DNA of 64,000 bases from Escherichia coli (lineage in GTDB: Bacteria; Pseudomonadota; Gammaproteobacteria; Enterobacterales; Enterobacteriaceae), in the NCBI RefSeq assembly GCF_003790525.1, contig NZ_CP033635.1; one strand, 5' to 3'. A program made the position numbers and the translations under genes. Positions 4,956 through 57,949 of the stretch are shown here, one piece after another. The notes beneath the pieces were generated by a model, which was given only the letters and a program-made list of their open reading frames with translations, did no database searches and had not been told where the DNA came from. Every line of letters starts with the position of its first letter. Positions within the stretch are counted from its first letter, which is position 1.

Positions 4956-4976
4956 GAATACTCCTGCAAAAGCAGA

Positions 4977-6989: not shown

Positions 6990-7018
6990 CAACAGTCCTT
7001 ATTAATGAGAAATCCTTC

Positions 7019-8725: not shown

Positions 8726-8734
8726 TTTCTGTCC

Positions 8735-12020: not shown

Positions 12021-12024
12021 CTCA

Positions 12025-12675: not shown

Positions 12676-12686
12676 TCATCATCTCC

Positions 12687-14126: not shown

Positions 14127-14142
14127 ATTCCGTCAGTGCTCC

Positions 14143-15090: not shown

Positions 15091-15100
15091 GGTGATTTCC

Positions 15101-40538: not shown

Positions 40539-42818
40539 ATGGATGACCAGTTAAAACAAAGTGCACTTGATTTCCATGAATTTCCAGTTCCAGGGAAAAT
40601 CCAGGTTTCTCCAACCAAGCCTCTGGCAACGCAGCGCGATCTGGCGCTGGCCTACTCACCAGGCGTTGCCGCACCTTGTCTTGAAATCGAAAAAGACCCG
40701 TTAAAAGCCTACAAATATACCGCGCGTGGTAACCTGGTGGCGGTGATCTCTAACGGTACGGCGGTGCTGGGGTTAGGCAACATTGGCGCGCTGGCAGGCA
40801 AACCGGTGATGGAAGGCAAGGGCGTTCTGTTTAAGAAATTCGCCGGGATTGATGTATTTGACATTGAAGTTGATGAACTCGACCCGGACAAATTTATTGA
40901 AGTCGTCGCCGCGCTTGAACCGACCTTCGGCGGCATCAACCTCGAAGACATTAAAGCGCCAGAATGTTTCTATATTGAACAGAAACTGCGCGAGCGGATG
41001 AATATTCCAGTATTCCACGACGATCAGCACGGCACGGCAATTATCAGCACTGCCGCCATCCTCAACGGATTGCGCGTGGTGGAGAAAAACATCTCCGACG
41101 TGCGGATGGTGGTTTCCGGCGCGGGTGCAGCAGCAATTGCCTGTATGAACCTGCTGGTGGCGCTGGGGCTGCAAAAACATAACATCGTGGTTTGTGATTC
41201 AAAAGGCGTTATCTATCAGGGCCGTGAGCCAAATATGGCGGAAACCAAAGCCGCATATGCGGTGGTGGATGACGGCAAACGTACCCTCGATGATGTGATT
41301 GAAGGTGCGGATATTTTCCTCGGCTGTTCCGGCCCGAAAGTGCTGACCCAGGAAATGGTGAAGAAAATGGCTCGGGCACCAATGATCCTGGCGCTGGCGA
41401 ATCCGGAACCGGAAATTCTGCCGCCGCTGGCGAAAGAAGTGCGTCCGGATGCCATCATCTGTACCGGCCGTTCCGACTACCCGAACCAGGTGAACAACGT
41501 CCTTTGCTTCCCGTTTATCTTCCGTGGCGCGCTGGACGTTGGCGCAACCGCCATCAACGAAGAGATGAAACTGGCGGCAGTACGCGCGATTGCAGAACTG
41601 GCCCATGCGGAACAGAGTGAAGTGGTGGCTTCAGCGTATGGCGATCAGGATCTGAGCTTTGGTCCGGAATACATCATTCCAAAACCGTTTGATCCGCGCT
41701 TGATCGTTAAGATCGCTCCTGCGGTGGCGAAAGCGGCGATGGAGTCGGGCGTGGCGACGCGTCCGATTGCTGATTTCGACGTCTACATCGACAAGCTGAC
41801 GGAGTTCGTTTACAAAACCAACCTGTTTATGAAGCCGATTTTCTCCCAGGCTCGCAAAGCGCCGAAGCGCGTAGTTCTGCCGGAAGGGGAAGAGGCGCGC
41901 GTTCTGCATGCCACTCAGGAATTGGTAACGCTGGGACTGGCGAAACCGATTCTTATTGGTCGTCCGAACGTGATCGAAATGCGCATTCAGAAACTGGGCT
42001 TGCAGATCAAGGCGGGCGTTGATTTTGAGATCGTCAATAACGAATCCGATCCGCGCTTTAAAGAGTACTGGACCGAATACTTCCAGATCATGAAGCGTCG
42101 CGGTGTCACTCAGGAGCAGGCGCAGCGTGCGCTGATCAGTAACCCGACAGTGATCGGCGCGATCATGGTTCAGCGTGGCGAAGCCGATGCAATGATTTGC
42201 GGTACGGTGGGCGATTATCATGAACACTTTAGCGTGGTGAAAAATGTCTTTGGTTATCGCGATGGCGTTCACACCGCAGGTGCCATGAACGCGCTGCTGT
42301 TGCCGAGTGGTAACACCTTTATTGCCGATACCTACGTCAATGATGAGCCTGATGCAGAAGAGCTGGCGGAGATCACCTTGATGGCGGCAGAAACTGTTCG
42401 TCGTTTTGGTATTGAACCGCGTGTGGCTCTGTTGTCGCACTCCAACTTTGGTTCTTCTGACTGCCCGTCGTCGAGCAAAATGCGTCAGGCGCTGGAACTG
42501 GTCAGGGAACGTGCGCCAGAACTGATGATTGATGGTGAAATGCACGGCGATGCAGCGCTGGTGGAAGCGATTCGCAACGACCGTATGCCGGACAGCCCTT
42601 TGAAAGGTTCCGCTAATATTCTGGTGATGCCGAACATGGAAGCTGCCCGCATTAGTTACAACTTACTGCGCGTTTCCAGCTCGGAAGGTGTGACTGTCGG
42701 TCCGGTGCTGATGGGCGTGGCGAAGCCGGTTCACGTGTTAACGCCGATCGCATCGGTACGTCGTATCGTCAACATGGTGGCGCTGGCCGTGGTTGAAGCG
42801 CAAACCCAACCGCTGTAA
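40539..42818 (+). CDS. maeB: NADP-dependent malic enzyme (malic enzyme domain plus PTA-like C-terminal domain)
   Basis: 759-aa ORF; divergent from talA. Confidence 0.95.
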
Positions 42819-42835
42819 TTCTTTTTTAACTCTCA

Positions 42836-42863
42836 CGCTTACCCTGAATATTCAGGGTAAGCG
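42836..42863 (+). terminator. Perfect palindrome after maeB, putative terminator
   Basis: cgcttaccctgaatattcagggtaagcg (stem of about 12 bp) followed by a weak U-tract (GTTTAG). Confidence 0.45.
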
Positions 42864-43110
42864 GTTTAGCTGCAATATATTAGTAAAGTTTATTACTGAG
42901 TTTGCGAATAATAAAAAAAACAGTATATAAAATATCTCGATATTATTTTATTTATATTCATGCGTTGCATATGAAAGTTTATGCACCACAGCAAATATCT
43001 CTCCATTCTTAGTGATCTACCTCACCTTTTAAACGCGCTTGCCGAATTTTGTTATTTACTCTGACGAAATATTGTCACGATACACGAAAGTTTTTCACAG
43101 GCGGCGACTC

Positions 43111-43446
43111 ATGGATAAAGAACGCATCATTCAGGAATTTGTGCCCGGTAAACAGGTCACACTGGCGCATCTCATCGCGCATCCCGGCGAGGAACTGGCG
43201 AAGAAAATCGGCGTTCCGGATGCGGGCGCAATTGGCATTATGACGCTAACTCCCGGAGAAACGGCGATGATCGCCGGTGATTTAGCGCTGAAAGCTGCCG
43301 ATGTGCATATCGGTTTTCTCGACCGTTTTAGCGGCGCGCTGGTGATTTATGGCTCGGTGGGTGCAGTAGAAGAAGCGTTATCACAAACCGTCAGTGGTTT
43401 AGGTCGCTTATTAAATTATACGCTTTGTGAAATGACCAAAAGTTAA
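43111..43446 (+). CDS. eutS: Ethanolamine-utilisation microcompartment shell protein (BMC domain)
   Basis: Track ORF 43039-43446; the ATG at 43111 ([32 protein letters not shown]) gives 111 aa. Confidence 0.85.
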
Positions 43447-43458
43447 TACGAGGCATTC

Positions 43459-43938
43459 ATGAAACGAATTGCGTTTGTGGGTACCGTCGGGGCAGGAAAA
43501 ACAACGTTATTTAATGCGTTGCAGGGGAATTATACCCTCGCCAGAAAAACACAGGCCGTGGAATTTAATGATAAGGGCGATATTGATACGCCGGGTGAAT
43601 ATTTTAGCCATCCCCGCTGGTATCACGCCTTAATTACCACGCTACAGGATGTGGACATGCTGATCTATGTCCACGGCGCGAATGACCCGGAAAGTCGGTT
43701 GCCTGCCGGGTTGCTGGATATTGGCGTCAGCAAACGGCAAATCGCCGTCATCAGTAAAACGGACATGCCAGATGCTGACGTCGCCGCAACGCGAAAGTTA
43801 TTGCTTGAGACGGGCTTCGAAGAGCCGATTTTCGAGCTAAACAGCCACGACCCGCAAAGCGTGCAGCAACTGGTGGATTATCTGGCATCTCTCACCAAAC
43901 AGGAGGAAGCAGGTGAAAAAACTCATCACAGCGAATGA
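43459..43938 (+). CDS. eutP: Ethanolamine-utilisation P-loop protein (acetate kinase-like)
   Basis: 159-aa ORF with Walker A GTVGAGKTT. Confidence 0.9.
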   Translation: MKRIAFVGTVGAGKTTLFNALQGNYTLARKTQAVEFNDKGDIDTPGEYFSHPRWYHALITTLQDVDMLIYVHGANDPESRLPAGLLDIGVSKRQIAVISKTDMPDADVAATRKLLLETGFEEPIFELNSHDPQSVQQLVDYLASLTKQEEAGEKTHHSE

Positions 43939-44614
43939 TATTCGTGAAGCACACGCGCGCGGCGAACTGGCAATGTCCGTGGTTCTGCGCGCCAGCATTA
44001 TTACCCCGGAAGCTCGTGAAGTGGCTGATCTGTTGGGTTTTACCATCACCGAATGTGATGAATCGACTGCGGTAACGACGTCCGTTCCCGCCAGCGTGCC
44101 AGCCGATAAAACCGAAAGCCAGCGCATCCGCGAAACCATCATCGCCCAGCTACCGGAAGGCCAGTTTACCGAAAGCCTGGTCGCGCAGCTGATGGAAAAA
44201 GTGATGAAGGAAAAACAGTCACTGGAGCAGGGTGCAATGCAGCCGAGTTTCAAATCGGTGACCGGCAAAGGCGGCATCAAAGTGATTGATGGCAGCAGCG
44301 TCAAGTTTGGTCGTTTCGATGGCGCGGAACCGCACTGCGTAGGCTTGACTGATCTCGTGACCGGAGACGACGGCAGCAGTATGGCCGCTGGTTTCATGCA
44401 GTGGGAGAACGCCTTCTTTCCGTGGACCCTGAACTACGACGAAATCGACATGGTGCTGGAAGGGGAACTGCATGTTCGCCACGAAGGCGAAACTATGATC
44501 GCCAAAGCGGGCGATGTGATGTTTATCCCGAAAGGCTCCAGTATCGAATTTGGTACGACATCCAGCGTGAAATTCCTGTATGTCGCCTGGCCGGCTAACT
44601 GGCAATCCCTATGA
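43913..44614 (+). CDS. eutQ: Ethanolamine-utilisation cupin-domain protein
   Basis: 233-aa ORF; overlaps the eutP 3' end by 26 nt. Confidence 0.9.
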   Translation: MKKLITANDIREAHARGELAMSVVLRASIITPEAREVADLLGFTITECDESTAVTTSVPASVPADKTESQRIRETIIAQLPEGQFTESLVAQLMEKVMKEKQSLEQGAMQPSFKSVTGKGGIKVIDGSSVKFGRFDGAEPHCVGLTDLVTGDDGSSMAAGFMQWENAFFPWTLNYDEIDMVLEGELHVRHEGETMIAKAGDVMFIPKGSSIEFGTTSSVKFLYVAWPANWQSL

Positions 44615-45414
44615 AAGATTTCATCACCGAAGCATGGCTAAGAGCGAACCATACGCTCAGCGAAGGCGCAGAGATCCATCTCCCTGCGGACAGTCGCCTG
44701 ACGCCCTCTGCCCGGGAGTTACTGGAAAGCCGCCATCTGCGCATCAAGTTTATTGACGAGCAGGGCCGCCTGTTTGTTGACGATGAACAGCAGCAGCCGC
44801 AGCCCGTTCATGGGCTGACCAGTAGCGATGAACATCCGCAGGCGTGCTGCGAACTGTGCCGCCAGCCGGTGGCAAAAAAGCCGGATACGCTGACTCACCT
44901 GTCGGCGGAAAAAATGGTTGCCAAAAGCGATCCGCGCCTGGCTTTTCGCGCTGTTCTCGACAGCACCATTGCGCTGGCAGTGTGGCTGCAAATTGAACTG
45001 GCGGAACCGTGGCAGCCGTGGCTGGCGGATATCCGTTCGCGTCTTGGCAACATTATGCGTGCCGATGCGCTGGGGGAACCGCTGGCCTGCCAGGCGATTG
45101 TCGGGCTTTCTGACGAAGATCTGCATCGGCTTTCTCACCAGCCGCTGCGTTATCTCGACCACGATCATCTGGTGCCGGAAGCCAGCCACGGGCGCGATGC
45201 GGCGTTGCTAAATCTGCTACGCACCAAAGTGCGGGAAACCGAAACCGTAGCGGCGCAGGTCTTTATCACCCGCAGCTTTGAAGTATTACGCCCGGACATC
45301 TTGCAGGCGCTGAACCGCCTTTCCAGCACGGTCTACGTGATGATGATCCTGAGCGTAACGAAGCAGCCGCTAACGGTGAAGCAGATCCAACAACGACTGG
45401 GGGAAACGCAATGA
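44611..45414 (+). CDS. eutT: Ethanolamine-utilisation cob(I)alamin adenosyltransferase
   Basis: 267-aa ORF; ATGA overlap with eutQ. Confidence 0.9.
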
Positions 45415-46427
45415 TTATTGAACGTTGTCGTGAACTGGCGTTGCGAGCGCCCGCCAGAGTGGTTTTTCCGGATGCGTTAGATCAGCGTGTGCTGAAAGCT
45501 GCGCAATATTTACATCAACAAGGTCTGGCAACGCCCATTCTGGTCGCTAATCCGTTTGAACTTCGTCAGTTTGCGCTCAGTCATGGCGTAGCGATGGACG
45601 GGCTACAGGTGATTGATCCGCATGGCAACCTCGCAATGCGGGAAGAATTTGCTCATCGCTGGCTGGCCCGCGCGGGCGAAAAAACGCCGCCGGATGCGCT
45701 GGAAAAACTCACCGAACCGCTGATGTTCGCCGCCGCAATGGTCAGCGCCGGTAAAGCGGATGTCTGTATCGCGGGCAATCTCTCTTCCACGGCGAATGTG
45801 CTGCGTGCCGGATTACGCATTATTGGCTTGCAGCCAGGCTGTAAAACGCTCTCATCCATTTTCCTGATGCTGCCACAGTACAGCGGTCCGGCGTTGGGTT
45901 TTGCCGATTGCAGCGTGGTGCCACAGCCGACGGCGGCGCAGTTGGCGGATATCGCGCTTGCCAGCGCCGAAACCTGGCGCGCCATCACCGGAGAAGAACC
46001 GCGCGTGGCGATGCTGTCGTTTTCCAGCAACGGTAGTGCCCGTCACCCCTGCGTTGCCAACGTGCAGCAGGCGACAGAAATCGTCCGTGAGCGCGCACCA
46101 AAGCTGGTTGTCGATGGCGAGTTGCAGTTTGACGCCGCCTTCGTGCCGGAAGTGGCGGCGCAAAAAGCGCCTGCCAGCCCGCTACAAGGCAAGGCCAATG
46201 TGATGGTTTTTCCGTCGCTGGAAGCCGGAAATATTGGCTACAAAATCGCACAACGACTTGGCGGATATCGTGCCGTCGGGCCATTGATACAAGGACTTGC
46301 CGCGCCGATGCACGATCTCTCTCGTGGTTGTAGCGTGCAGGAAATTATCGAACTGGCGCTGGTGGCAGCTGTGCCGCGTCAGACAGAAGTGAACCGCGAA
46401 AGCAGTTTACAAACACTGGTTGAATGA
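45411..46427 (+). CDS. eutD: Ethanolamine-utilisation phosphotransacetylase
   Basis: 338-aa ORF, PTA-like; ATGA overlap with eutT. Confidence 0.9.
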
Positions 46428-46465
46428 ACGGTCCCGTTCTGGACCCTGATAAAGAGGAAAGCACA

Positions 46466-46759
46466 ATGGAAGCATTAGGAATGATCGAAACCCGGGGCCT
46501 GGTTGCACTGATTGAGGCTTCTGACGCGATGGTTAAAGCTGCGCGCGTCAAGCTGGTTGGTGTTAAGCAGATTGGCGGCGGCCTGTGTACTGCCATGGTT
46601 CGTGGTGATGTTGCAGCCTGTAAAGCCGCGACCGATGCAGGTGCCGCAGCGGCACAGCGTATCGGCGAGCTGGTATCTGTACACGTTATCCCGCGTCCGC
46701 ACGGCGACCTGGAAGAAGTGTTCCCGATCGGCCTGAAAGGCGATAGCAGCAACCTGTAA
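46466..46759 (+). CDS. eutM: Major BMC shell protein (hexamer)
   Basis: Track ORF 46424-46759; the ATG at 46466 ([28 protein letters not shown]) has an AAGAGGAAA RBS; 97 aa. Confidence 0.9.
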
Positions 46760-46865
46760 TCACCCTGTGTGACGTCGATTCGGGCGTCACGCTCTCTCCT
46801 TTTTCATTTTACCTTCTGCGGAGGGTAGGGGGAGCTTTTACCTGAAATACGCCACGGAGGCGGGT

Positions 46866-47153
46866 ATGAAACTGGCAGTCGTCACTGGACAAATTGTTTG
46901 TACCGTACGCCATCACGGACTGGCGCATGACAAATTGCTGATGGTGGAAATGATTGATCCACAAGGTAATCCTGACGGGCAATGCGCTGTCGCCATCGAC
47001 AATATTGGCGCGGGAACCGGGGAGTGGGTGTTGCTGGTGAGTGGCAGTTCCGCCCGCCAGGCGCATAAAAGCGAAACGTCACCGGTCGATCTGTGCGTGA
47101 TTGGCATCGTCGATGAGGTGGTGTCTGGCGGTCAGGTCATTTTCCACAAATAA
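46866..47153 (+). CDS. eutN: BMC vertex (pentamer) protein
   Basis: 95-aa ORF (MKLAVVTGQIVCTVRH). Confidence 0.9.
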   Translation: MKLAVVTGQIVCTVRHHGLAHDKLLMVEMIDPQGNPDGQCAVAIDNIGAGTGEWVLLVSGSSARQAHKSETSPVDLCVIGIVDEVVSGGQVIFHK

Positions 47154-47164
47154 GGCAGAACATC

Positions 47165-48568
47165 ATGAATCAACAGGATATTGAACAGGTGGTGAAAGCG
47201 GTACTGCTGAAAATGCAAAGCAGTGACACGCCGCCCGCCGCCGTTCATGAGATGGGCGTTTTCGCGTCCCTGGATGACGCCGTTGCGGCAGCCAAAGTCG
47301 CCCAGCAAGGGTTAAAAAGCGTGGCAATGCGCCAGTTAGCCATTGCTGCCATTCGTGAGGCAGGCGAAAAACACGCCAGAGATTTAGCGGAACTTGCCGT
47401 CAGTGAAACCGGCATGGGGCGCGTTGAAGATAAATTTGCCAAAAACGTCGCTCAGGCGCGCGGCACACCAGGCGTTGAGTGCCTCTCACCACAGGTGCTG
47501 ACCGGTGACAACGGCCTGACCCTGATTGAAAACGCGCCCTGGGGCGTGGTGGCTTCGGTGACGCCTTCCACTAACCCGGCGGCAACCGTAATTAACAACG
47601 CCATCAGCCTGATTGCCGCGGGCAACAGCGTCATTTTTGCCCCGCATCCGGCGGCGAAAAAAGTCTCCCAGCGGGCGATTACGCTGCTCAACCAGGCGAT
47701 TGTTGCCGCAGGCGGGCCGGAAAACTTACTGGTTACTGTGGCCAATCCGGATATCGAAACCGCGCAACGTTTGTTCAAGTTCCCGGGTATCGGCCTGCTG
47801 GTGGTGACCGGCGGCGAAGCGGTAGTGGAAGCGGCGCGTAAACACACCAATAAACGTCTGATTGCCGCAGGCGCTGGCAACCCGCCGGTAGTGGTGGATG
47901 AAACCGCCGACCTCGCCCGTGCTGCTCAGTCCATCGTCAAAGGCGCGTCTTTCGATAACAACATCATTTGTGCCGACGAAAAGGTACTGATTGTTGTTGA
48001 TAGCGTAGCCGATGAACTGATGCGTCTGATGGAAGGCCAGCATGCGGTGAAACTGACCGCAGAGCAGGCGCAGCAACTGCAATCGGTGTTGCTGAAAAAT
48101 ATCGACGAGTGCGGAAAAGGCACCGTCAGCCGTGACTGGGTTGGTCGCGATGCGGCGAAAATCGCGGCGGCAATCGGCCTTAAAGTTCCGGAACAAACGC
48201 GACTGCTGTTTGTAGAAACCACCGCAGAACATCCGTTTGCCGTGACCGAACTGATGATGCCGGTGCTGCCCGTCGTGCGCGTCGCCAACGTGGCGGATGC
48301 CATTGCGCTGGCGGTGAAACTGGAAGGCGGTTGCCACCACACGGCGGCAATGCACTCGCGCAATATCGAGAACATGAACCAGATGGCGAATGCCATTGAT
48401 ACCAGCATTTTCGTTAAGAACGGACCGTGCATTGCCGGGCTGGGGCTGGGCGGGGAAGGCTGGACCACCATGACCATCACCACGCCAACCGGTGAAGGGG
48501 TAACCAGCGCGCGGACGTTTGTCCGTCTGCGTCGCTGTGTATTAGTCGATGCGTTTCGCATTGTTTAA
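47165..48568 (+). CDS. eutE: CoA-acylating acetaldehyde dehydrogenase
   Basis: 467-aa aldehyde-dehydrogenase-family ORF with N-terminal BMC-targeting-like segment. Confidence 0.9.
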   Translation: MNQQDIEQVVKAVLLKMQSSDTPPAAVHEMGVFASLDDAVAAAKVAQQGLKSVAMRQLAIAAIREAGEKHARDLAELAVSETGMGRVEDKFAKNVAQARGTPGVECLSPQVLTGDNGLTLIENAPWGVVASVTPSTNPAATVINNAISLIAAGNSVIFAPHPAAKKVSQRAITLLNQAIVAAGGPENLLVTVANPDIETAQRLFKFPGIGLLVVTGGEAVVEAARKHTNKRLIAAGAGNPPVVVDETADLARAAQSIVKGASFDNNIICADEKVLIVVDSVADELMRLMEGQHAVKLTAEQAQQLQSVLLKNIDECGKGTVSRDWVGRDAAKIAAAIGLKVPEQTRLLFVETTAEHPFAVTELMMPVLPVVRVANVADAIALAVKLEGGCHHTAAMHSRNIENMNQMANAIDTSIFVKNGPCIAGLGLGGEGWTTMTITTPTGEGVTSARTFVRLRRCVLVDAFRIV

Positions 48569-48578
48569 GGAGTAACCG

Positions 48579-49415
48579 ATGGCGCACGATGAACAATGGC
48601 TCACCCCACGTCTGCAAACGGCGGCAACGCTGTGTAACCAGACGCCCGCCGCGACGGAATCTCCGCTGTGGCTGGGGGTGGATCTGGGCACCTGCGATGT
48701 GGTGTCGATGGTTGTCGACCGCGACGGTCTGCCGGTGGCGGTATGCCTCGACTGGGCCGATGTGGTCCGCGACGGCATCGTCTGGGATTTCTTCGGTGCG
48801 GTCACCATTGTTCGTCGCCATCTCGACACCCTCGAGCAGCAATTCGGTCGCCGTTTTAGCCATGCGGCGACCTCTTTTCCTCCAGGTACGGACCCGCGTA
48901 TTTCCATCAACGTGCTGGAGTCTGCCGGACTGGAAGTGAGCCATGTACTGGATGAGCCAACCGCAGTCGCGGATCTGCTGCAACTGGACAACGCCGGTGT
49001 AGTGGATATCGGCGGTGGCACTACTGGTATTGCCATCGTGAAAAAGGGCAAGGTGACGTACTCGGCGGATGAAGCGACCGGCGGACATCACATCTCTCTG
49101 ACTCTCGCCGGAAATCGTCGTATTTCGCTGGAAGAGGCAGAGCAGTACAAGCGCGGTCACGGTGAAGAGATTTGGCCCGCGGTGAAACCGGTGTACGAAA
49201 AAATGGCGGACATTGTCGCCCGGCATATTGAAGGGCAGGGCATTACGGATTTATGGCTGGCGGGCGGCTCTTGTATGCAACCGGGCGTGGCGGAACTGTT
49301 TCGCAAACAATTTCCGGCGTTACAGGTGCATTTACCGCAGCACAGTTTGTTTATGACCCCGCTGGCGATCGCCAGTAGCGGGCGAGAGAAAGCGGAGGGG
49401 CTATATGCAAAATGA
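48579..49415 (+). CDS. eutJ: Ethanolamine-utilisation chaperonin-like protein (actin/Hsp70 fold)
   Basis: 278-aa ORF. Confidence 0.9.
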   Translation: MAHDEQWLTPRLQTAATLCNQTPAATESPLWLGVDLGTCDVVSMVVDRDGLPVAVCLDWADVVRDGIVWDFFGAVTIVRRHLDTLEQQFGRRFSHAATSFPPGTDPRISINVLESAGLEVSHVLDEPTAVADLLQLDNAGVVDIGGGTTGIAIVKKGKVTYSADEATGGHHISLTLAGNRRISLEEAEQYKRGHGEEIWPAVKPVYEKMADIVARHIEGQGITDLWLAGGSCMQPGVAELFRKQFPALQVHLPQHSLFMTPLAIASSGREKAEGLYAK

Positions 49416-50592
49416 ATTGCAGACCGCGCTCTTTCAGGCGTTCGATACCCTGAATCTGCAACGGGTAAAAACATTTAGCGTTCCACCGGTGACGCTTTGC
49501 GGTCCGGGCGCGGTGAGCAGTTGTGGGCAGCAAGCGCAAACGCGTGGGCTGAAACATCTGTTCGTGATGGCAGACAGCTTTTTGCATCAGGCAGGGATGA
49601 CCGCCGGGCTGACACGTAGCCTGGCCGTTAAAGGTATCGCCATGACGCTCTGGCCATGTCCGGTGGGCGAACCATGCATCACCGACGTGTGTGCAGCCGT
49701 GGCGCAGTTGCGTGAATCAGGCTGTGACGGGGTGATTGCGTTTGGCGGCGGCTCGGTGCTGGATGCAGCAAAAGCCGTGGCGTTGCTGGTGACGAACCCG
49801 GATAGCACGCTGGCAGAGATGTCAGAAACCAGCGTTCTGCAACCGCGCCTGCCGTTGATTGCCATTCCGACTACCGCCGGAACCGGCTCTGAAACCACCA
49901 ACGTAACGGTGATTATCGATGCGGTGAGCGGGCGTAAGCAGGTGTTAGCCCATGCCTCGCTGATGCCGGATGTGGCGATTCTCGACGCCGCATTGACCGA
50001 AGGTGTGCCGTCGCATGTCACGGCGATGACTGGCATTGATGCGTTAACCCATGCCATTGAAGCGTACAGCGCGCTGAACGCCACACCATTTACCGACAGC
50101 CTGGCGATTGGCGCCATTGCGATGATTGGTCAATCGCTGCCGAAAGCGGTGGGCTACGGTCACGACCTTGCCGCGCGCGAGAGCATGTTGCTGGCTTCAT
50201 GTATGGCGGGAATGGCGTTTTCCAGTGCGGGGCTTGGGTTGTGCCACGCGATGGCGCATCAGCCAGGGGCGGCGCTGCATATTCCGCACGGTCTGGCGAA
50301 CGCTATGTTGCTGCCAACGGTAATGGAATTTAACCGGATGGTTTGTCGTGATCGGTTTAGTCAGATTGGCCGGGCGCTGAGAACTAAAAAATCCGACGAT
50401 CGTGACGCTATTAACGCGGTAAGTGAGCTGATTGCGGAAGTCGGGATTGGTAAACGACTGGGCGATATTGGTGCGACATCTGCGCATTACGGCGCATGGG
50501 CGCAGGCCGCGCTGGAAGATATTTGTCTGCGCAGCAACCCGCGTACCGCCAGCCTGGAGCAGATTATTGGTCTGTATGCTGCGGCGCAATAA
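49405..50592 (+). CDS. eutG: Iron-containing alcohol dehydrogenase
   Basis: 395-aa Fe-ADH-family ORF; 11-nt overlap with eutJ. Confidence 0.9.
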   Translation: MQNELQTALFQAFDTLNLQRVKTFSVPPVTLCGPGAVSSCGQQAQTRGLKHLFVMADSFLHQAGMTAGLTRSLAVKGIAMTLWPCPVGEPCITDVCAAVAQLRESGCDGVIAFGGGSVLDAAKAVALLVTNPDSTLAEMSETSVLQPRLPLIAIPTTAGTGSETTNVTVIIDAVSGRKQVLAHASLMPDVAILDAALTEGVPSHVTAMTGIDALTHAIEAYSALNATPFTDSLAIGAIAMIGQSLPKAVGYGHDLAARESMLLASCMAGMAFSSAGLGLCHAMAHQPGAALHIPHGLANAMLLPTVMEFNRMVCRDRFSQIGRALRTKKSDDRDAINAVSELIAEVGIGKRLGDIGATSAHYGAWAQAALEDICLRSNPRTASLEQIIGLYAAAQ

Positions 50593-50610
50593 AAGTGTAC
50601 GGACAGTCCC

Positions 50611-50648
50611 CTCGCCCCTTTGGGGAGAGGGTTAGGGTGAGGGGAACA
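50611..50648. repeat. G-rich 38-bp intergenic repeat, copy 2 (CTCGCCCCTTTGGGGAGAGGGTTAGGGTGAGGGGAACA)
   Basis: 36/38 identical to 37218-37255; followed by partial inverted copies (ccctcacccc at 50674-50683, gtgaggg at 50701-50707) in the 169-bp eutG-eutH spacer. Confidence 0.6.
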
Positions 50649-50761
50649 GAGTCGCTCCGGTGCAAACAATTACCCTCACCCCGGTCCCTCGGCTTCCAGA
50701 GTGAGGGAAAAACCCACTTTCAGCATTGGCAATAAATAACAACTAACAGGGAGTAAAGGCG

Positions 50762-51988
50762 ATGGGAATTAACGAAATCATCATGTACATCATGATGTTC
50801 TTTATGCTGATAGCTGCCGTAGACAGGATCCTGTCGCAGTTCGGCGGTTCTGCTCGTTTCCTCGGTAAGTTCGGTAAAAGTATCGAAGGATCCGGCAGTC
50901 AGTTCGAAGAAGGCTTTATGGCAATGGGCGCTTTGGGCCTGGCGATGGTTGGTATGACCGCGCTGGCACCTGTTCTGGCCCACGTACTCGGACCGGTGAT
51001 TATCCCGGTTTACGAAATGCTCGGCGCAAACCCGTCAATGTTCGCCGGAACACTGCTGGCGTGCGATATGGGCGGCTTCTTCCTCGCCAAAGAGTTGGCG
51101 GGCGGCGACGTAGCAGCGTGGCTATACTCTGGATTAATTCTCGGGTCGATGATGGGGCCAACGATTGTGTTTTCCATTCCGGTGGCGCTCGGCATTATCG
51201 AACCTTCTGACCGTCGTTATCTGGCGCTCGGCGTGCTGGCGGGCATTGTGACCATTCCGATTGGCTGTATTGCCGGTGGTCTGGTGGCTATGTACTCCGG
51301 TGTGCAGATCAACGGTCAGCCAGTGGAATTCACCTTTGCGCTGATCCTGATGAACATGATCCCGGTACTTATCGTTGCGGTGCTGGTGGCGCTGGGGCTG
51401 AAATTCATCCCGGAAAAAATGATCAACGGCTTCCAGATCTTCGCCAAATTCCTCGTTGCATTGATCACCCTCGGTCTTGCCGCTGCGGTAGTGAAATTCC
51501 TCCTTGGCTGGGAACTGATCCCGGGCCTTGATCCTATCTTTATGGCCCCTGGCGATAAACCCGGTGAAGTGATGCGCGCCATTGAAGTTATCGGCTCGAT
51601 CTCCTGCGTTCTGTTAGGGGCGTATCCGATGGTGCTGCTGCTGACTCGCTGGTTTGAAAAACCGCTGATGAGTGTCGGTAAGGTGCTGAATATGAACAAT
51701 ATAGCGGCAGCCGGCATGGTGGCAACGCTTGCCAACAACATCCCGATGTTTGGCATGATGAAGCAGATGGATACCCGCGGCAAAGTCATCAACTGTGCCT
51801 TCGCCGTTTCCGCTGCTTTCGCCCTGGGCGACCATTTAGGCTTCGCGGCTGCCAACATGAACGCCATGATCTTCCCGATGATTGTCGGCAAGCTGATCGG
51901 CGGCGTCACGGCGATTGGCGTGGCGATGATGCTGGTACCTAAAGAAGACGCGAGCGCGGCTAAAACCGAAGCGGAGGCGCAATCGTGA
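50762..51988 (+). CDS. eutH: Ethanolamine permease/facilitator
   Basis: 408-aa polytopic membrane ORF. Confidence 0.9.
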   Translation: MGINEIIMYIMMFFMLIAAVDRILSQFGGSARFLGKFGKSIEGSGSQFEEGFMAMGALGLAMVGMTALAPVLAHVLGPVIIPVYEMLGANPSMFAGTLLACDMGGFFLAKELAGGDVAAWLYSGLILGSMMGPTIVFSIPVALGIIEPSDRRYLALGVLAGIVTIPIGCIAGGLVAMYSGVQINGQPVEFTFALILMNMIPVLIVAVLVALGLKFIPEKMINGFQIFAKFLVALITLGLAAAVVKFLLGWELIPGLDPIFMAPGDKPGEVMRAIEVIGSISCVLLGAYPMVLLLTRWFEKPLMSVGKVLNMNNIAAAGMVATLANNIPMFGMMKQMDTRGKVINCAFAVSAAFALGDHLGFAAANMNAMIFPMIVGKLIGGVTAIGVAMMLVPKEDASAAKTEAEAQS

Positions 51989-53388
51989 ACACTCGCCAGC
52001 TACTGAGCGTCGGTATCGATATCGGCACCACCACCACCCAGGTGATTTTCTCCCACCTGGAGCTGGTTAACCGTGCGGCGGTGTCGCAGGTGCCGCGCTA
52101 CGAATTCATCAAACGCGAAATTAGCTGGCAAAGCCCGGTGTTCTTTACCCCTGTCGATAAACAGGGTGGTTTAAAAGAAGCGGAACTGAAAACCTTAATC
52201 CTGGATCAATATCAGGCTGCGGGCATTGCGCCGGAAAGTGTTGATTCTGGTGCCATCATCATCACCGGTGAAAGCGCGAAAACCCGCAACGCTCGCCCGG
52301 CGGTGATGACGCTCTCCCAGTCGCTGGGCGATTTTGTCGTCGCCAGCGCCGGGCCGCATCTCGAATCCGTGATCGCCGGTCACGGTGCCGGGGCGCAAAC
52401 TCTTTCTGAACAACGGCTGTGTCGGGTACTGAATATCGATATCGGCGGTGGCACTGCGAACTACGCCCTGTTCGATGCCGGAAAAATCAGCGGCACCGCC
52501 TGCCTCAACGTCGGCGGTCGCCTGCTGGAAACCGACAGCCAGGGGCGCGTGGTTTACGCTCATAAACCGGGGCAGATGATTGTGGATGAGTGCTTCGGCG
52601 CAGGCACTGACGCCCGTTCGCTGACCGGCGCGCAGCTGGTGCAGGTTACCCGCCGGATGGCAGAGCTGATTGTCGAAGTGATTGACGGAACGCTTTCGCC
52701 GCTCGCGCAGGCATTGATGCAAACCGGTTTGCTGCCCGTAGGTGTTACGCCCGAAATCATTACGCTTTCTGGCGGCGTTGGCGAATGTTATCGCCACCAG
52801 CCCGCCGACCCGTTCTGTTTTGCCGATATTGGCCCGCTTCTGGCAACGGCGCTGCATGACCATCCGCGCCTGCGTGAGATGAACGTGCAGTTTCCGGCGC
52901 AAACCGTGCGCGCCACGGTGATTGGCGCGGGTGCACATACCCTTTCGCTCTCTGGCAGCACAATCTGGCTGGAGGGCGTACAACTGCCGCTGCGCAACTT
53001 GCCGGTGGCGATCCCAATTGATGAAAAGGATCTGGTGAGTGCCTGGCAACAGGCGCTGATTCAGCTGGATCTTGATCCTAAAACTGACGCGTACGTGCTG
53101 GCGCTTCCCGCCTCGCTGCCTGTGCGTTACGCCGCGGTACTGACGGTCATCAACGCGTTGGTCGATTTCGTCGCGCGTTTTCCGAATCCGCATCCCCTGC
53201 TGGTGGTGGCCGGGCAGGACTTTGGTAAAGCTCTGGGCATGTTGTTGCGCCCACAGCTACAACAACTCCCGTTGGCAGTCATTGACGAAGTGATTGTCCG
53301 CGCGGGGGACTATATCGACATTGGTACGCCTCTTTTTGGCGGATCGGTTGTGCCGGTGACGGTGAAATCACTCGCATTTCCTTCCTGA
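51985..53388 (+). CDS. eutA: Ethanolamine ammonia-lyase reactivating factor
   Basis: 467-aa ORF; ATGA overlap with eutH. Confidence 0.9.
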   Translation: MNTRQLLSVGIDIGTTTTQVIFSHLELVNRAAVSQVPRYEFIKREISWQSPVFFTPVDKQGGLKEAELKTLILDQYQAAGIAPESVDSGAIIITGESAKTRNARPAVMTLSQSLGDFVVASAGPHLESVIAGHGAGAQTLSEQRLCRVLNIDIGGGTANYALFDAGKISGTACLNVGGRLLETDSQGRVVYAHKPGQMIVDECFGAGTDARSLTGAQLVQVTRRMAELIVEVIDGTLSPLAQALMQTGLLPVGVTPEIITLSGGVGECYRHQPADPFCFADIGPLLATALHDHPRLREMNVQFPAQTVRATVIGAGAHTLSLSGSTIWLEGVQLPLRNLPVAIPIDEKDLVSAWQQALIQLDLDPKTDAYVLALPASLPVRYAAVLTVINALVDFVARFPNPHPLLVVAGQDFGKALGMLLRPQLQQLPLAVIDEVIVRAGDYIDIGTPLFGGSVVPVTVKSLAFPS

Positions 53389-53399
53389 GGGAACGACTT

Positions 53400-54761
53400 A
53401 TGAAACTAAAGACCACATTGTTCGGCAATGTATATCAGTTTAAGGATGTAAAAGAGGTGCTGGCTAAAGCCAACGAACTGCGTTCGGGGGATGTGCTGGC
53501 GGGCGTTGCTGCGGCAAGCTCACAGGAGCGCGTGGCGGCAAAGCAGGTGTTGTCGGAAATGACCGTAGCGGACATCCGCAATAATCCGGTGATTGCCTAT
53601 GAAGATGACTGCGTGACGCGGCTGATTCAGGACGATGTTAACGAAACGGCCTACAACCAGATTAAAAACTGGAGCATCAGCGAACTGCGTGAGTATGTGC
53701 TGAGCGATGAAACCAGCGTGGACGACATTGCCTTTACCCGCAAAGGGCTGACCTCGGAAGTGGTAGCGGCGGTAGCGAAGATTTGCTCCAACGCGGACCT
53801 GATCTACGGCGCGAAGAAAATGCCGGTGATCAAAAAGGCCAATACCACCATCGGTATTCCGGGCACCTTTAGCGCCCGCTTGCAGCCAAACGATACCCGT
53901 GACGATGTGCAAAGTATCGCCGCGCAAATCTACGAAGGGCTTTCCTTCGGGGTGGGCGATGCGGTGATCGGCGTTAACCCGGTGACTGACGACGTGGAAA
54001 ACTTAAGCCGCGTGTTGGATACCATCTATGGCGTGATCGACAAATTCAACATCCCAACTCAGGGCTGCGTACTGGCGCACGTCACCACCCAGATCGAAGC
54101 GATTCGTCGCGGCGCACCGGGCGGGCTGATTTTCCAGAGTATTTGCGGCAGCGAAAAAGGGCTGAAAGAGTTTGGCGTGGAGCTGGCGATGCTCGACGAA
54201 GCGCGCGCAGTGGGTGCAGAGTTTAACCGTATCGCCGGGGAAAACTGCCTCTACTTCGAAACCGGACAAGGTTCGGCGCTGTCCGCTGGCGCTAACTTCG
54301 GCGCTGACCAGGTGACGATGGAAGCGCGTAACTATGGGCTGGCGCGTCATTACGATCCGTTTATCGTCAACACCGTGGTCGGTTTTATTGGGCCGGAGTA
54401 TCTCTACAACGACCGCCAGATTATCCGCGCGGGCTTAGAAGATCACTTTATGGGCAAGCTGAGCGGCATCTCTATGGGCTGTGACTGCTGCTACACCAAC
54501 CACGCTGACGCTGACCAGAACCTCAACGAAAACCTGATGATCCTGCTCGCCACCGCAGGCTGTAACTACATCATGGGGATGCCGCTGGGTGATGACATCA
54601 TGCTCAACTACCAGACTACGGCCTTCCACGACACCGCCACTGTGCGTCAGTTACTCAACCTGCGCCCGTCACCGGAGTTTGAACGCTGGCTGGAAAGCAT
54701 GGGCATTATGGCAAACGGTCGCCTGACCAAACGGGCGGGCGATCCGTCACTGTTCTTCTGA
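53400..54761 (+). CDS. eutB: Ethanolamine ammonia-lyase large subunit
   Basis: 453-aa ORF starting 11 bp after the eutA stop. Confidence 0.95.
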   Translation: MKLKTTLFGNVYQFKDVKEVLAKANELRSGDVLAGVAAASSQERVAAKQVLSEMTVADIRNNPVIAYEDDCVTRLIQDDVNETAYNQIKNWSISELREYVLSDETSVDDIAFTRKGLTSEVVAAVAKICSNADLIYGAKKMPVIKKANTTIGIPGTFSARLQPNDTRDDVQSIAAQIYEGLSFGVGDAVIGVNPVTDDVENLSRVLDTIYGVIDKFNIPTQGCVLAHVTTQIEAIRRGAPGGLIFQSICGSEKGLKEFGVELAMLDEARAVGAEFNRIAGENCLYFETGQGSALSAGANFGADQVTMEARNYGLARHYDPFIVNTVVGFIGPEYLYNDRQIIRAGLEDHFMGKLSGISMGCDCCYTNHADADQNLNENLMILLATAGCNYIMGMPLGDDIMLNYQTTAFHDTATVRQLLNLRPSPEFERWLESMGIMANGRLTKRAGDPSLFF

Positions 54762-54781
54762 TGACGCGGAGATAACACATC

Positions 54782-55669
54782 ATGGATCAAAAACAGATTG
54801 AAGAAATTGTACGCAGCGTGATGGCGTCAATGGGACAAGCGGCCCCCGCGCCGTCAGAAGCAAAGTGCGCCACCACCACCTGTACGACACCAGTGACCTC
54901 GGAAAGCTGCGCGCTGGATTTAGGTTCTGCGGAAGCAAAAGCGTGGATTGGTGTGGAAAACCCGCATCGCGCAGACGTATTAACAGAACTGCGTCGCAGC
55001 ACCGTGGCCCGCGTTTGTACCGGTCGTGCCGGTCCGCGTCCGCGTACCCAGGCGTTGCTGCGTTTCCTGGCCGATCACTCTCGTTCGAAAGATACCGTAC
55101 TGAAAGAAGTGCCGGAAGAGTGGGTGAAAGCGCAGGGCTTGCTGGAAGTCCGCTCTGAAATTAGCGACAAAAATCTCTACCTGACTCGTCCGGATATGGG
55201 CCGCCGCCTGTGTGCAGAAGCTGTTGAAGCGCTGAAAGCGCAGTGTGTTGCCAATCCGGACGTGCAGGTCGTTATTTCTGATGGCCTGTCAACTGATGCG
55301 ATCACCGTGAACTACGAAGAGATCCTGCCACCGCTGATGGCGGGCCTGAAACAGGCCGGGCTGAAAGTCGGTACGCCATTCTTTGTTCGTTATGGTCGCG
55401 TGAAGATTGAAGATCAGATCGGTGAGATCCTCGGCGCGAAAGTGGTGATCCTGCTGGTGGGGGAACGCCCGGGATTAGGGCAGTCAGAAAGCCTCTCCTG
55501 CTACGCCGTTTACTCGCCGCGTATTGCAACCACCGTTGAGGCCGATCGTACCTGTATCTCTAACATTCACCAGGGCGGCACGCCGCCGGTTGAAGCCGCA
55601 GCCGTCATTGTGGATTTGGCGAAACGTATGCTGGAGCAGAAAGCATCCGGCATCAACATGACCCGATAA
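54782..55669 (+). CDS. eutC: Ethanolamine ammonia-lyase small subunit
   Basis: 295-aa ORF. Confidence 0.95.
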
Positions 55670-55678
55670 GGAGGCATC

Positions 55679-56338
55679 ATGCCAGCTTTAGATTTGATTC
55701 GACCGTCGGTAACCGCCATGCGGGTGATTGCCTCCGTTAACGCCGAATTTGCACGTGAACTGAAATTGCCGCCGCATATTCGTAGCCTCGGGCTGATTTC
55801 TGCTGATTCAGATGACGTCACCTACATTGCGGCTGACGAAGCGACCAAGCAGGCGATGGTCGAAGTGGTATATGGTCGCTCGCTGTATGCGGGCGCTGCA
55901 CACGGCCCGTCACCGACTGCCGGTGAGGTGCTGATTATGCTGGGTGGGCCAAACCCGGCGGAAGTGCGTGCTGGTCTGGATGCGATGGTTGCGCATATTG
56001 AAAATGGCGCTGCTTTCCAGTGGGCTAATGACGCAGAAAATACAGCCTTCCTGGCACATGTCGTTTCGCGTACCGGTTCTTATCTCTCATCAACCGCCGG
56101 GATCACGCCTGGCGATCCGATGGCGTATCTGGTGGCACCGCCGCTGGAAGCGACCTACGGCATTGATGCAGCGTTGAAATCTGCCGACGTGCAGCTGGTG
56201 ACCTATGTCCCGCCACCGTCTGAAACCAACTACTCGGCAGCATTTTTAACCGGTAGCCAGGCCGCGTGTAAAGCAGCCTGTAACGCCTTTACCGATGCAG
56301 TGCTGGAAATCGCGCGTAATCCAATCCAGCGTGCGTAA
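55679..56338 (+). CDS. eutL: BMC shell protein (tandem-BMC trimer)
   Basis: 219-aa ORF. Confidence 0.9.
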
Positions 56339-56350
56339 CGGAGGTTGCCG

Positions 56351-56851
56351 ATGATCAATGCACTGGGATTGCTGGAAGTGGACGGCATGGTCGCCGCGAT
56401 AGATGCAGCTGATGCCATACTCAAAGCAGCTAACGTTCGTCTGCTCAGTCATGAAGTGCTTGACCCTGGTCGCCTAACGCTGGTGGTGGAAGGCGATCTG
56501 GCGGCGTGTCGTGCGGCGCTGGACGCAGGTTGTGCTGCCGCGATGCGTACCGGGCGTGTCATCAGCCGTAAGGAGATCGGTCGGCCAGACGATGACACCC
56601 AGTGGCTGGTTACTGGCTTTAACCGCCAGCCGAAGCAACCCGTAAAGGAACCCGACGCGCCAGTTATCGTCGCGGAATCTGCTGACGAGTTGTTGGCGCT
56701 GTTAACATCAGTACGTCAGGGAATGACGGCAGGAGAAGTGGCTGCCCACTTTGGCTGGCCGCTGGAAAAAGCCAGAAATGCGCTCGAACAGCTCTTTTCT
56801 GCCGGGACGTTACGTAAACGCAGTAGTCGTTACCGTCTCAAGCCCCATTAA
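56351..56851 (+). CDS. eutK: BMC shell protein with C-terminal nucleic-acid-binding-like domain
   Basis: Track ORF starts at TTG 56345; the ATG at 56351 (MINALGLLEVDGMVAAIDAADA) has a GGAGG RBS; 166 aa. Confidence 0.85.
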   Translation: MINALGLLEVDGMVAAIDAADAILKAANVRLLSHEVLDPGRLTLVVEGDLAACRAALDAGCAAAMRTGRVISRKEIGRPDDDTQWLVTGFNRQPKQPVKEPDAPVIVAESADELLALLTSVRQGMTAGEVAAHFGWPLEKARNALEQLFSAGTLRKRSSRYRLKPH

Positions 56852-56896
56852 CCTGTCGGAGGTGCCGGGTGTCCTACAACACCCGGCATTAACATC

Positions 56897-57949
56897 ATGA
56901 AAAAGACCCGTACAGCCAATTTGCACCATCTTTATCATGAACCCTTACCCGAAAACCTGAAGCTCACGCCGAAGGTCGAAGTGGATAATGTTCATCAACG
57001 ACAGACAACGGATGTCTATGAACATGCTTTGACAATTACCGCCTGGCAGCAGATTTACGATCAGCTGCATCCGGGCAAGTTTCATGGTGAATTTACGGAA
57101 ATTCTACTCGATGATATTCAGGTTTTTCGTGAATACACTGGTCTGGCGCTGCGTCAGTCGTGCCTGGTCTGGCCGAACTCGTTCTGGTTTGGCATTCCGG
57201 CGACGCGCGGTGAGCAGGGATTTATCGGTTCGCAATGTCTGGGAAGCGCAGAAATTGCGACGCGCCCGGGTGGAACCGAGTTTGAATTAAGTACGCCGGA
57301 CGATTACACGATCCTGGGCGTAGTGCTTTCTGAAGATGTCATCACTCGTCAGGCTAACTTTTTGCATAATCCGGATCGGGTATTACATATGCTGCGTAGC
57401 CAGTCGGCGTTGGAAGTGAAAGAGCAGCATAAAGCCGCGCTGTGGGGCTTTGTCCAACAGGCGCTGGCGACATTTTGCGAGAACCCGGAAAATCTTCATC
57501 AGCCTGCTGTGCGTAAAGTGCTGGGGGATAATTTGCTCATGGCGATGGGGGCGATGCTGGAAGAAGCGCAGCCAATGGTGACGGCGGAAAGCATCAGTCA
57601 TCAGAGTTACCGTCGATTGCTTTCCCGCGCCCGTGAATATGTGCTGGAAAACATGTCTGAACCGGTAACGGTGTTGGAGTTGTGCAATCAATTGCATGTC
57701 AGCCGCCGCACGCTACAAAACGCGTTTCACGCTATTTTAGGCATTGGCCCAAACGCGTGGCTGAAACGCATTCGCCTGAACGCCGTACGCCGCGAACTGA
57801 TAAGCCCGTGGTCGCAAAGCACAACGGTAAAAGACGCCGCCATGCAGTGGGGATTCTGGCATCTGGGGCAATTTGCCACGGATTACCAGCAGCTGTTTGC
57901 CGAGAAGCCGTCACTGACGCTGCATCAGCGGATGCGGGAGTGGGGGTGA
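56897..57949 (+). CDS. eutR: AraC-family transcriptional activator of the eut operon
   Basis: 350-aa ORF with C-terminal AraC-type HTH. Confidence 0.9.

Follow-up and report, generated by a model that had tools for sequence, protein, structure and literature searches.

Short, conserved overlaps between neighboring genes of the eut and hyf operons in an Escherichia coli chromosome

The DNA analyzed here, hereafter the window, is a 64,000-nucleotide stretch of Escherichia coli chromosome that is near-identical to strain SMS-3-5 (NC_010498.1), with 100% identity across positions 43000–46500. Across the 5,426 complete genomes of this species, 5,407 carry at least 80% of that same interval. L001 matches window positions 29000–60500 exactly, and L002 shows two differences from positions 1–32217. 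Every annotated coding sequence in the window translates cleanly. The eut operon is unbroken, in contrast to its interrupted counterpart in K-12, and it carries the gene order (eutSPQTDMNEJGHABCLKR) and the protein families expected of the enterobacterial eut locus (EUT1). On the plus strand, eutP (43459–43938) is an intact reading frame for a 159-residue PduV-EutP GTPase-like acetate kinase, with PF10662 spanning residues 1–143; eutQ (43913–44614) encodes 233 residues comprising an N-terminal shell/cargo linker and a cupin domain (PF06249, residues 85–232); eutT (44611–45414) encodes a corrinoid adenosyltransferase of 267 residues (PF01923); and eutD (45411–46427), annotated as pta, encodes a 338-residue phosphotransacetylase (PF01515). 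Farther along the same strand lie eutJ (48579–49415), eutG (49405–50592), eutH (50762–51988), and eutA (51985–53388). Three open reading frames antisense to eutQ and eutT (186, 128, and 156 amino acids) matched no Pfam family and were taken as spurious, and a scan of the entire window at Rfam gathering thresholds returned no hits.

At nine junctions in the eut and hyf operons, the downstream gene starts at or before the stop codon of its upstream neighbor on the same strand. An earlier note on this DNA, assigned to positions 43913–45414 (the eutQ start through the eutT stop), had listed these overlaps; all nine are present in the sequence and its annotation, and the RefSeq values are identical to those of curated K-12 MG1655. 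In the eut operon (plus strand), eutP and eutQ share 26 nt (43913–43938, opening with the GTG of eutQ and closing with the TGA of eutP), eutQ/eutT (44611–44614) and eutT/eutD (45411–45414) share 4 nt each with the sequence ATGA, eutJ/eutG share 11 nt (49405–49415, ATGCAAAATGA), and eutH/eutA share 4 nt (51985–51988), for which the noted length holds with the sequence being GTGA, not ATGA. In the hyf operon (minus strand), the overlaps are 1 nt at hyfA/hyfB (17119, TAATG), 11 nt at hyfF/hyfG (10440–10450, with a GTG start for hyfG), 4 nt at hyfH/hyfI (8180–8183, ATGA), and 8 nt at hyfI/hyfJ (7425–7432, ATGACTGA). Separately, we observed that the K-12 hyfG carries a 48-nt deletion.

Co-directional overlaps of −4 and −1 nt (ATGA, TGATG, or TAATG) are generic in prokaryotic operons, and eutQ/eutT, eutT/eutD, eutH/eutA, and hyfH/hyfI (−4) together with hyfA/hyfB (−1) belong to these canonical classes, with −8 and −11 being the next in-phase classes. 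Two junctions depart from the generic picture: the 26 nt of eutP/eutQ exceed the range of efficient re-initiation (−8 to +10), and eutT lacks the Shine-Dalgarno (SD) sequence usual before the downstream gene of such pairs. Overlaps account for 10 of the 43 tabulated same-strand neighbor pairs in the window. This rate agrees with what has been published for E. coli, where −4 is the commonest spacing and the range −8 to +6 holds 707 of 2,987 pairs (PMC10666635), and the window is thus not enriched. Our main reading, to which we assign a probability of roughly 85%, is that the eut and hyf overlaps are real, correctly annotated, conserved, and ordinary short overlaps of co-directional genes in two long operons. 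Short overlaps are a well-known and common feature of bacterial operons.

Were the overlaps annotation artifacts, the true starts would lie further downstream and the genes would not overlap, a possibility to which the GTG starts of eutQ, eutA, and hyfG and an in-frame ATG 20 codons inside eutQ lend some color. We weighed it by scanning all in-frame start candidates for SD complementarity, by comparing N-termini across about 50 related loci spanning Escherichia to Pseudomonas and Xenophilus, and by aligning Pfam and PDB homologs, whose matches start at residues 1–9. In each frame scanned, the annotated start is the candidate with the best SD. The duplexes at the eight starts other than eutT have ΔG values of −6.6 to −10.3 kcal/mol versus −1.5 to −6.3 kcal/mol at downstream candidates, which lack an SD; for eutT there is no second candidate. 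Across the related loci (13–15 genera), the alignments of EutQ, EutT, EutD, EutG, and EutA begin with the first residue or no more than a few residues away from it, and the first 10–15 residues from the annotated starts are conserved as far as Pseudomonas and Xenophilus. The eutQ start is fixed in all relatives, as GTG or ATG, with residue 1 aligned; its N-terminus (MKKLITANDIR) is kept from Escherichia to Pseudomonas, and the corresponding region of Salmonella EutQ is functionally required (PMC12487888). EutT likewise conserves MxxFITExWLR. Pfam matches begin at residue 1 in EutP and EutD, where residue 1 of EutD corresponds to position 1 of the PTA_PTB profile. The N-termini of HyfB, HyfG, and HyfI agree to within 0–4 residues with those of HycC, HycE, and HycG, with HyfB residues 3–604 aligning to HycC residues 3–573 (7z0s) and HyfG residues 7–571 to HycE residues 4–581. 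No corrected start removed an overlap, and the SD scan, conservation, and homolog alignments together largely rule out mis-called starts, leaving the artifact explanation exceedingly improbable.

Comparison with the related loci showed that overlap is a property of the individual junction. It occurs at eutP/eutQ in 38 of 49 scored loci, at eutQ/eutT in 17 of 47, at eutT/eutD in 47 of 47, at eutJ/eutG in 34 of 41, and at eutH/eutA in 31 of 39; the comparison junctions eutS/eutP, eutN/eutE, eutE/eutJ, eutD/eutM, and eutM/eutN overlap in none of 43–50 loci, and eutG/eutH in 1 of 40. The positions of overlaps are non-random, being conserved junction by junction across genera. The eutT/eutD spacing is −4 or −11 in all scorable loci (13 genera), eutJ/eutG is −11 in 32 of 41, and eutH/eutA is −4 in 31 of 39, opening to +9 to +11 in Pseudomonas and Xenophilus. 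Salmonella enterica, whose EUT1 locus of 17 genes shares its gene order and overlapping junctions with the window, scores −23 at eutP/eutQ, −4 at eutQ/eutT and eutT/eutD, and −11 at eutJ/eutG, its eutP stop lying 3 nt earlier. The eutM-eutN spacer of Salmonella contains REP-like (repetitive extragenic palindrome) sequences, whereas that of the window contains two conserved hairpins. We read the latter from per-sequence folds, as the RNAalifold consensus for this spacer was uninformative, with the MAFFT alignment placing the stems out of register. A search for internal promoters and terminators across 42700–47200 gave counts at or below shuffle expectation, the eutM-eutN hairpin being the sole notable match.

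The C-terminal tails of the upstream proteins vary across these loci and the N-termini of the downstream proteins are conserved. Each overlap pairs a conserved downstream N-terminus with a loosely constrained upstream tail, and the next gene has its ribosome-binding site within that tail. The 26-nt junction of eutP and eutQ illustrates this arrangement. The EutP tail past the PF10662 domain is poorly conserved, and the eutP stop lies at −26, −23, −4, +4, +11, +12, or +15 relative to the fixed eutQ start. In contrast, an SD for eutQ is kept in nearly all relatives despite the changing sequence of the EutP tail; in the window it reads AGGAGG (43901–43906, plus strand), lies among the codons of eutP, and precedes the GTG by 6 nt (ΔG −10.3 kcal/mol). 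In Salmonella, Yang et al. explicitly noted in 2025 that eutQ codons 1–9 overlap eutP (PMC12487888). This overlap would in essence be incidental, arising from the point at which the eutP frame ends, and eutQ is probably translated mainly from its own strong site, since the abundance of EutQ exceeds that of EutP about 14-fold. Judged by sequence, neither a programmed frameshift nor a fusion seems likely where the A-rich ends of these two genes overlap (GTGAAAAAAC): the eutP frame holds no canonical slippery heptamer, and a −1 shift would miss the eutQ frame. In Morganella, what looked like a fusion of eutP and eutQ (−765) came from tblastn aligning through stop codons, the true spacing being +12, and the same artifact produced apparent overlaps in Serratia, where the spacing is +4 or +11.

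The wandering eutP stop raises the broader possibility that drift of stop codons in compact operons has produced all of the overlaps neutrally, and that they affect translation at no junction. The lack of constraint on upstream tails fits this explanation, as do the first codons of eutD (ATGATTATTGAA), where each of the two other frames meets a TGA; whichever frame comes in therefore terminates within 11 nt, and the alternation between −4 and −11 is accounted for. Nevertheless, neutrality throughout appears unlikely given that eutT and eutD overlap in every locus scored, that the state of each junction is specific to it across orders, that the SD is lost at eutT only together with overlap, and that coupling has been demonstrated experimentally at hyfHI (PMC6728339).

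It is at eutQ/eutT that the sequence points most clearly to an effect on translation. The eutT ATG lacks an SD (anti-SD ΔG −1.7 kcal/mol), and its frame offers no other start codon from a stop lying 5 codons upstream to a point 50 codons downstream. We scored SD strength against overlap at this junction in 47 related loci plus the window. The −4 overlap always occurs without an SD (ΔG −1.5 to −2.3 kcal/mol; n = 18, including the window), and gaps of +4 to +12 nt always occur with one (ΔG −5.2 to −9.2 kcal/mol; n = 29), an association with a Mann-Whitney p of 7.6e-9 that overstates the evidence, as the loci are phylogenetically non-independent. Both the SD-less ATGA state and the SD-bearing spacer are found within Citrobacter (Citrobacter-type junction, TAAGGCGGATGTATG). 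Lacking both an SD and an alternative start, eutT most likely needs ribosomes to finish eutQ and re-initiate in place if it is to be translated, and coupling from eutQ to eutT is strongly suggested by these features. This junction is the best candidate here for obligatory termination-reinitiation. Certainty is tempered by bioB-bioF, a pair sharing the ATGA overlap and a very weak SD, at which a reporter revealed de novo translation of bioF and no detectable coupling (PMC6728339). The strongest form of the proposal, that eutT has lost a ribosome-binding site of its own, owes all of its translation to re-initiation after eutQ, and toggles between the two states among lineages, we hold tentatively, with the balance tipped slightly against it.

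The earlier note had further taken the overlaps as translational coupling, a reasonable reading that holds by published experiment for hyfH/hyfI and finds the support described above at eutQ/eutT. Eight of the nine junctions lie within the distance compatible with re-initiation (overlap or a gap of up to about 10 nt), with eutP/eutQ, at −26, outside it. The hyfH-hyfI pair studied by Huber et al. in 2019 and 2023 is the very pair in the window, with its ATGA and an AAGGAG SD inside hyfH; there, coupling operates mainly through termination-reinitiation, with 10–30% de novo initiation (PMC6728339, PMC10666635). At eutT/eutD (SD GGGGGA, ΔG −8.4 kcal/mol), eutJ/eutG (GGAGGGG, −10.0 kcal/mol), eutH/eutA (GGAGG, −9.5 kcal/mol), hyfA/hyfB, hyfF/hyfG, and hyfI/hyfJ, a good SD lies 5–9 nt upstream of the start, and both re-initiation and independent initiation may therefore occur. 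Our literature search on eut and translational coupling found no paper. Coupling could also arise if starts were sequestered in RNA structure that is melted by the upstream ribosome, a recognized model (PMC12548453) for which the eutJ/eutG junction, whose fold pairs the SD with downstream sequence (z −1.43), offers the nearest match. However, none of the nine overlapping junction regions is more stable than its shuffles at |z| > 1.5, and controls behave alike: across 16 junctions folded from −60 to +30, z ranged unremarkably from −1.4 to +1.8, with no difference between overlapping and non-overlapping regions. Occlusion of start sites is thus unsupported, and we give coupling through RNA unfolding a very small chance.

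What the overlaps might accomplish was the final claim of the earlier note, which held them consistent with stoichiometric co-translation of complex subunits. For eut this lacks support. In a published K-12 W3110 proteome, relative iBAQ values, an intensity-based measure of abundance that reflects protein stability as well as synthesis, are 100 for EutQ, 7 for EutP, 10 for EutD, and 7 for EutG, so that overlapping eut pairs are not near-equal in abundance (PMC11334477). In the same proteome, EutB and EutC, which form a genuine complex, stand at 37 and 24, approximately equimolar despite a gap of +20 nt between their genes (PMC11334477); genes for shell proteins also lack overlaps. EutP is cytosolic and EutQ encapsulated (PMC12487888), which tells against their being subunits of one stable complex. 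The eut overlaps very probably do not set equal subunit stoichiometry. We know of no overlapping eut pair that forms a complex, and to our knowledge none has been reported for eutQ/eutT, eutT/eutD, or eutH/eutA.

For the hyf pairs, the idea of a complex is plausible by analogy, in that HyfB, HyfG, and HyfI are homologous to the HycC, HycE, and HycG subunits of formate hydrogenlyase, a complex of solved structure (7z0s). HyfJ is an assembly factor and hence an exception. Published genome-wide figures agree with the hyf case: heteromeric complexes are 4.5-fold overrepresented among E. coli pairs at −8 to +10 nt, with 30.4% versus 6.8% of pairs encoding complex subunits. Yet even genome-wide, 70% of close pairs are non-complex. 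Taking these figures together with the hyf homologies and the postulated role of EutJ as a chaperone of EutG on one side, and the unequal abundances, separate localization, and equimolar, non-overlapping EutB/EutC on the other, we see only a slim chance that the overlaps serve to ensure 1:1 co-translation.

With EutP and EutQ about 14-fold apart in abundance, overlap alone is no evidence of equal subunit production. Otherwise the check, which upholds the annotated start codons of nine genes in eut and hyf, is of little import beyond housekeeping. Editing the last 30 nt of eutP, eutT, eutJ, or eutH would strike the ribosome-binding site of the next gene, and insertions or deletions in the 3′ end of eutQ would likely be polar on eutT translation, which matters for eut engineering. 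If eutT is indeed translated only through re-initiation after eutQ, the level of the corrinoid adenosyltransferase would be tied to that of the most abundant Eut protein, at a small and constant fraction of it, and the eutQ/eutT junction would offer a naturally occurring test of how an enzyme ratio is set by the efficiency of re-initiation.

The window carries an uninterrupted eut operon of 17 genes (43111–57949, plus strand) and the hyfABCDEFGHIJR-focB operon (4107–17736, minus strand), and its translation revealed no internal stop in any annotated CDS. An annotated record matches positions 29000–60500 exactly and another comparison, of an annotated record with positions 1–32217, differs at 2 positions. 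E. coli SMS-3-5 is 100% identical to the window over 43000–46500, and at least 80% of this segment is present in 5,407 of 5,426 complete E. coli genomes. The eutA–eutB gap is 11 nt (53389–53399) and the operon is intact here; in K-12 MG1655 this junction is interrupted by the 6.8-kb cryptic prophage CPZ-55.

Sequence and annotation agree on all the overlaps listed in the earlier note. On the plus strand, these are eutP/eutQ (26 nt, 43913–43938, with a GTG start), eutQ/eutT (4 nt, ATGA, 44611–44614), eutT/eutD (4 nt, ATGA, 45411–45414), eutJ/eutG (11 nt, 49405–49415), and eutH/eutA (4 nt, GTGA rather than ATGA, 51985–51988); on the minus strand, they are hyfA/hyfB (1 nt), hyfF/hyfG (11 nt), hyfH/hyfI (4 nt), and hyfI/hyfJ (8 nt). 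The hand-curated K-12 MG1655 annotation gives the same nine values. Outside these operons, gcvR, which starts with TTG, overlaps bcp by 1 nt (18459), and ypeA/yfeZ overlap by 14 nt (60353–60366); hda (146–847) has CTG as its annotated start codon. Window-wide, 10 of 43 tabulated same-strand neighbor pairs overlap, a tabulation that leaves out ypeA/yfeZ. This is similar to published figures, and there is no enrichment: in most groups of prokaryotes, overlaps affect approximately 15% of co-directional pairs, and in E. coli the commonest spacing is −4, with 24% of pairs between −8 and +6 (PMC10666635).

Misassigned start codons could have generated these overlaps artifactually. For each downstream frame, we scored anti-Shine-Dalgarno (SD) pairing over the region bounded by the closest in-frame stop upstream and a point 50 codons into the gene. 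With the exception of eutT, annotated starts had the best pairing in frame (−6.6 to −10.3 kcal/mol); alternatives scored −6.3 kcal/mol or weaker, apart from a GTG three codons into hyfI (−7.6). The eutT ATG lacks an SD (−1.7 kcal/mol), yet it is the sole start codon available in the scan. We also fetched 55 loci encoding EutQ relatives, from Escherichia, Citrobacter, Salmonella, Klebsiella, Pseudocitrobacter, Intestinirhabdus, Yokenella, Buttiauxella, Pluralibacter, Morganella, Serratia, Entomohabitans, Pseudomonas, and Xenophilus, and modeled all eut genes there by tblastn. The EutQ alignment begins at residue 1 in all loci, with GTG or ATG as the start, and the N-termini of EutQ (MKKLITANDIR), EutT (MxxFITExWLR), EutD (M[IL][IL]ERCR), and EutA (MxxxxLxSVGIDxGT) are conserved as far as Pseudomonas and Xenophilus. 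EutD and EutP match Pfam families from residue 1, and at their N-termini HyfB, HyfG, and HyfI match HycC, HycE, and HycG of the solved formate hydrogenlyase complex (7z0s) to within 0–4 residues. No overlap was removed by these checks, and the annotation of the overlapping genes is sound.

Overlap is a conserved property of particular junctions. It occurs at eutP/eutQ in 38 of 49 related loci, at eutQ/eutT in 17 of 47, at eutJ/eutG in 34 of 41, and at eutH/eutA in 31 of 39, while eutT/eutD overlaps in all 47 (13 genera), by 4 or 11 nt without exception. The comparison junctions eutS/P, N/E, E/J, D/M, and M/N overlap in 0 of 43–50 loci, and eutG/H in 1 of 40; because the loci are phylogenetically non-independent, we treat these counts as descriptive. 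At every overlap, the conserved N-terminus of the downstream protein is encoded over an upstream C-terminal tail that varies (the EutP Pfam domain, for instance, stops at residue 143 of 159), and the position of the first stop in the upstream frame sets the overlap length. The eutP stop accordingly shifts among relatives (−26, −23, −4, +4, +11, +12, +15) around a fixed eutQ start, and the first codons of eutD (ATGATTATTGAA) contain TGA in both alternative frames, hence the −4/−11 alternation at eutT/eutD. SD motifs inside the upstream tails are kept across relatives despite changes in the encoded residues. Two loci are atypical: in Citrobacter sp. NCU1 (L012), the eutQ–eutT gap is 156 nt versus +9 nt in close relatives, probably a small insertion, and in the Citrobacter koseri representative genome (NCTC10786, L046), the eut genes give only fragmentary matches, their starts are shifted, and gaps measure 76–1,253 nt, so that the operon looks pseudogenized.

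The earlier note read the overlaps as stoichiometric co-translation of complex subunits, echoing a published genome-wide hypothesis for E. coli, in which complex subunits make up 30.4% of closely spaced pairs versus 6.8% of distant ones. For eut, this reading fails. Relative iBAQ abundances in E. coli K-12 W3110 on ethanolamine are EutQ 100, EutM 96, EutL 39, EutB 37, EutE 27, EutC 24, EutS 11, EutD 10, EutK 8, EutG 7, EutP 7, and EutN 1 (PMC11334477), placing EutP:EutQ at ~1:14 and EutQ:EutD at ~10:1; the true complex EutB/EutC is near-equimolar (37 versus 24) despite a +20 nt gap. Moreover, EutP is cytosolic and its deletion causes no growth defect, whereas EutQ is encapsulated, its N-terminal region joining shell and cargo (PMC12487888, which explicitly notes the eutP/eutQ overlap for Salmonella). 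For hyf, stoichiometric co-translation would be plausible, its products being homologs of complex subunits.

Within hyf, the window hyfG encodes 571 aa (8735–10450, minus strand) and can be aligned with HycE over its whole length. The K-12 MG1655 gene encodes 555 aa and lacks 48 nt found at 9238–9285 (minus strand), a segment bracketed by perfect 10-nt direct repeats, GCCCGTGATT (site 9238–9295). This costs 16 residues, aligned with FSNVGPMVRASGHARD in HycE; given this counterpart, the deletion appears to be the derived state in K-12. The full segment occurs in 2,179 of 4,294 E. coli genomes matching that part of hyfG, and sampled non-carriers have the K-12-like split match. Attempts to activate Hyd-4 in K-12 failed (PMC7654741), on which the deletion might bear; the deletion was not mentioned in the literature covered by a limited search.

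Two eut spacers were also noted. The 106-nt eutM–eutN spacer (46760–46865) contains two strong hairpins (46767–46792 and about 46794–46834) followed by a conserved box (UUUUACCUGAAAU; also given as CUUUUACCUGAAAU), with an MFE of −43.5 kcal/mol (z −3.0; 1 of 200 shuffles equally good). Citrobacter, Pluralibacter, Morganella, and Xenophilus share this layout, with pairing kept over differing stem sequences; in other genera, either the first hairpin is seen or the second is constructed differently, and Salmonella and most Klebsiella instead carry REP-like (repetitive extragenic palindrome) sequences. The hairpins have no Rfam family. The spacer is possibly a partial terminator or mRNA 3′-end stabilizer, and might account for the large excess of EutM over EutN (96:1). 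The GC-rich, 169-nt eutG–eutH spacer (50593–50761; fold z −1.8) holds nested palindromes (CCCCTCGCCCCTTTGGGGAGAGGG, GGGTGAGGGG...CCCTCACCCC); across the related loci this spacer measures anything between 27 and 474 nt (216 in K-12), suggesting that a dispersed repeat was inserted. In checks of both strands, no Rfam family matched in the window, promoter- and terminator-like matches in 42700–47200 were at or below shuffle expectation, and antisense ORFs, lacking Pfam matches, were rejected as genes.

Translational coupling itself has been demonstrated experimentally at hyfH/hyfI, where termination-reinitiation is tight, the last 15 nt of hyfH suffice, and de novo initiation accounts for 10–30% of hyfI initiation (PMC6728339, PMC10666635). 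Among eut junctions, eutQ/eutT is the best candidate for obligatory re-initiation, since eutT has neither an SD nor an alternative start. An SD is absent in all cases at −4 (−1.5 to −2.3 kcal/mol; n = 18 including the window) and present in all relatives with gaps of +4 to +12 (−5.2 to −9.2 kcal/mol; n = 29), and Citrobacter includes both states. This assignment falls short of certainty because bioBF, likewise an ATGA pair with a weak SD, nonetheless initiates de novo (PMC6728339). At the other junctions, starts have good SDs, and RNA folds are unremarkable (z −1.4 to +1.8), as in non-overlapping controls; re-initiation and independent initiation would both be possible there. The strong AGGAGG site and the Eut abundances suggest that eutQ initiates mainly independently of eutP, and its −26 nt spacing lies beyond the range at which efficient re-initiation has been shown. 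Short gene overlaps are a textbook phenomenon, and one of the pairs named here had already been tested by published experiment; what is mildly new is limited to the way SD presence and overlap vary together at eutQ/eutT.
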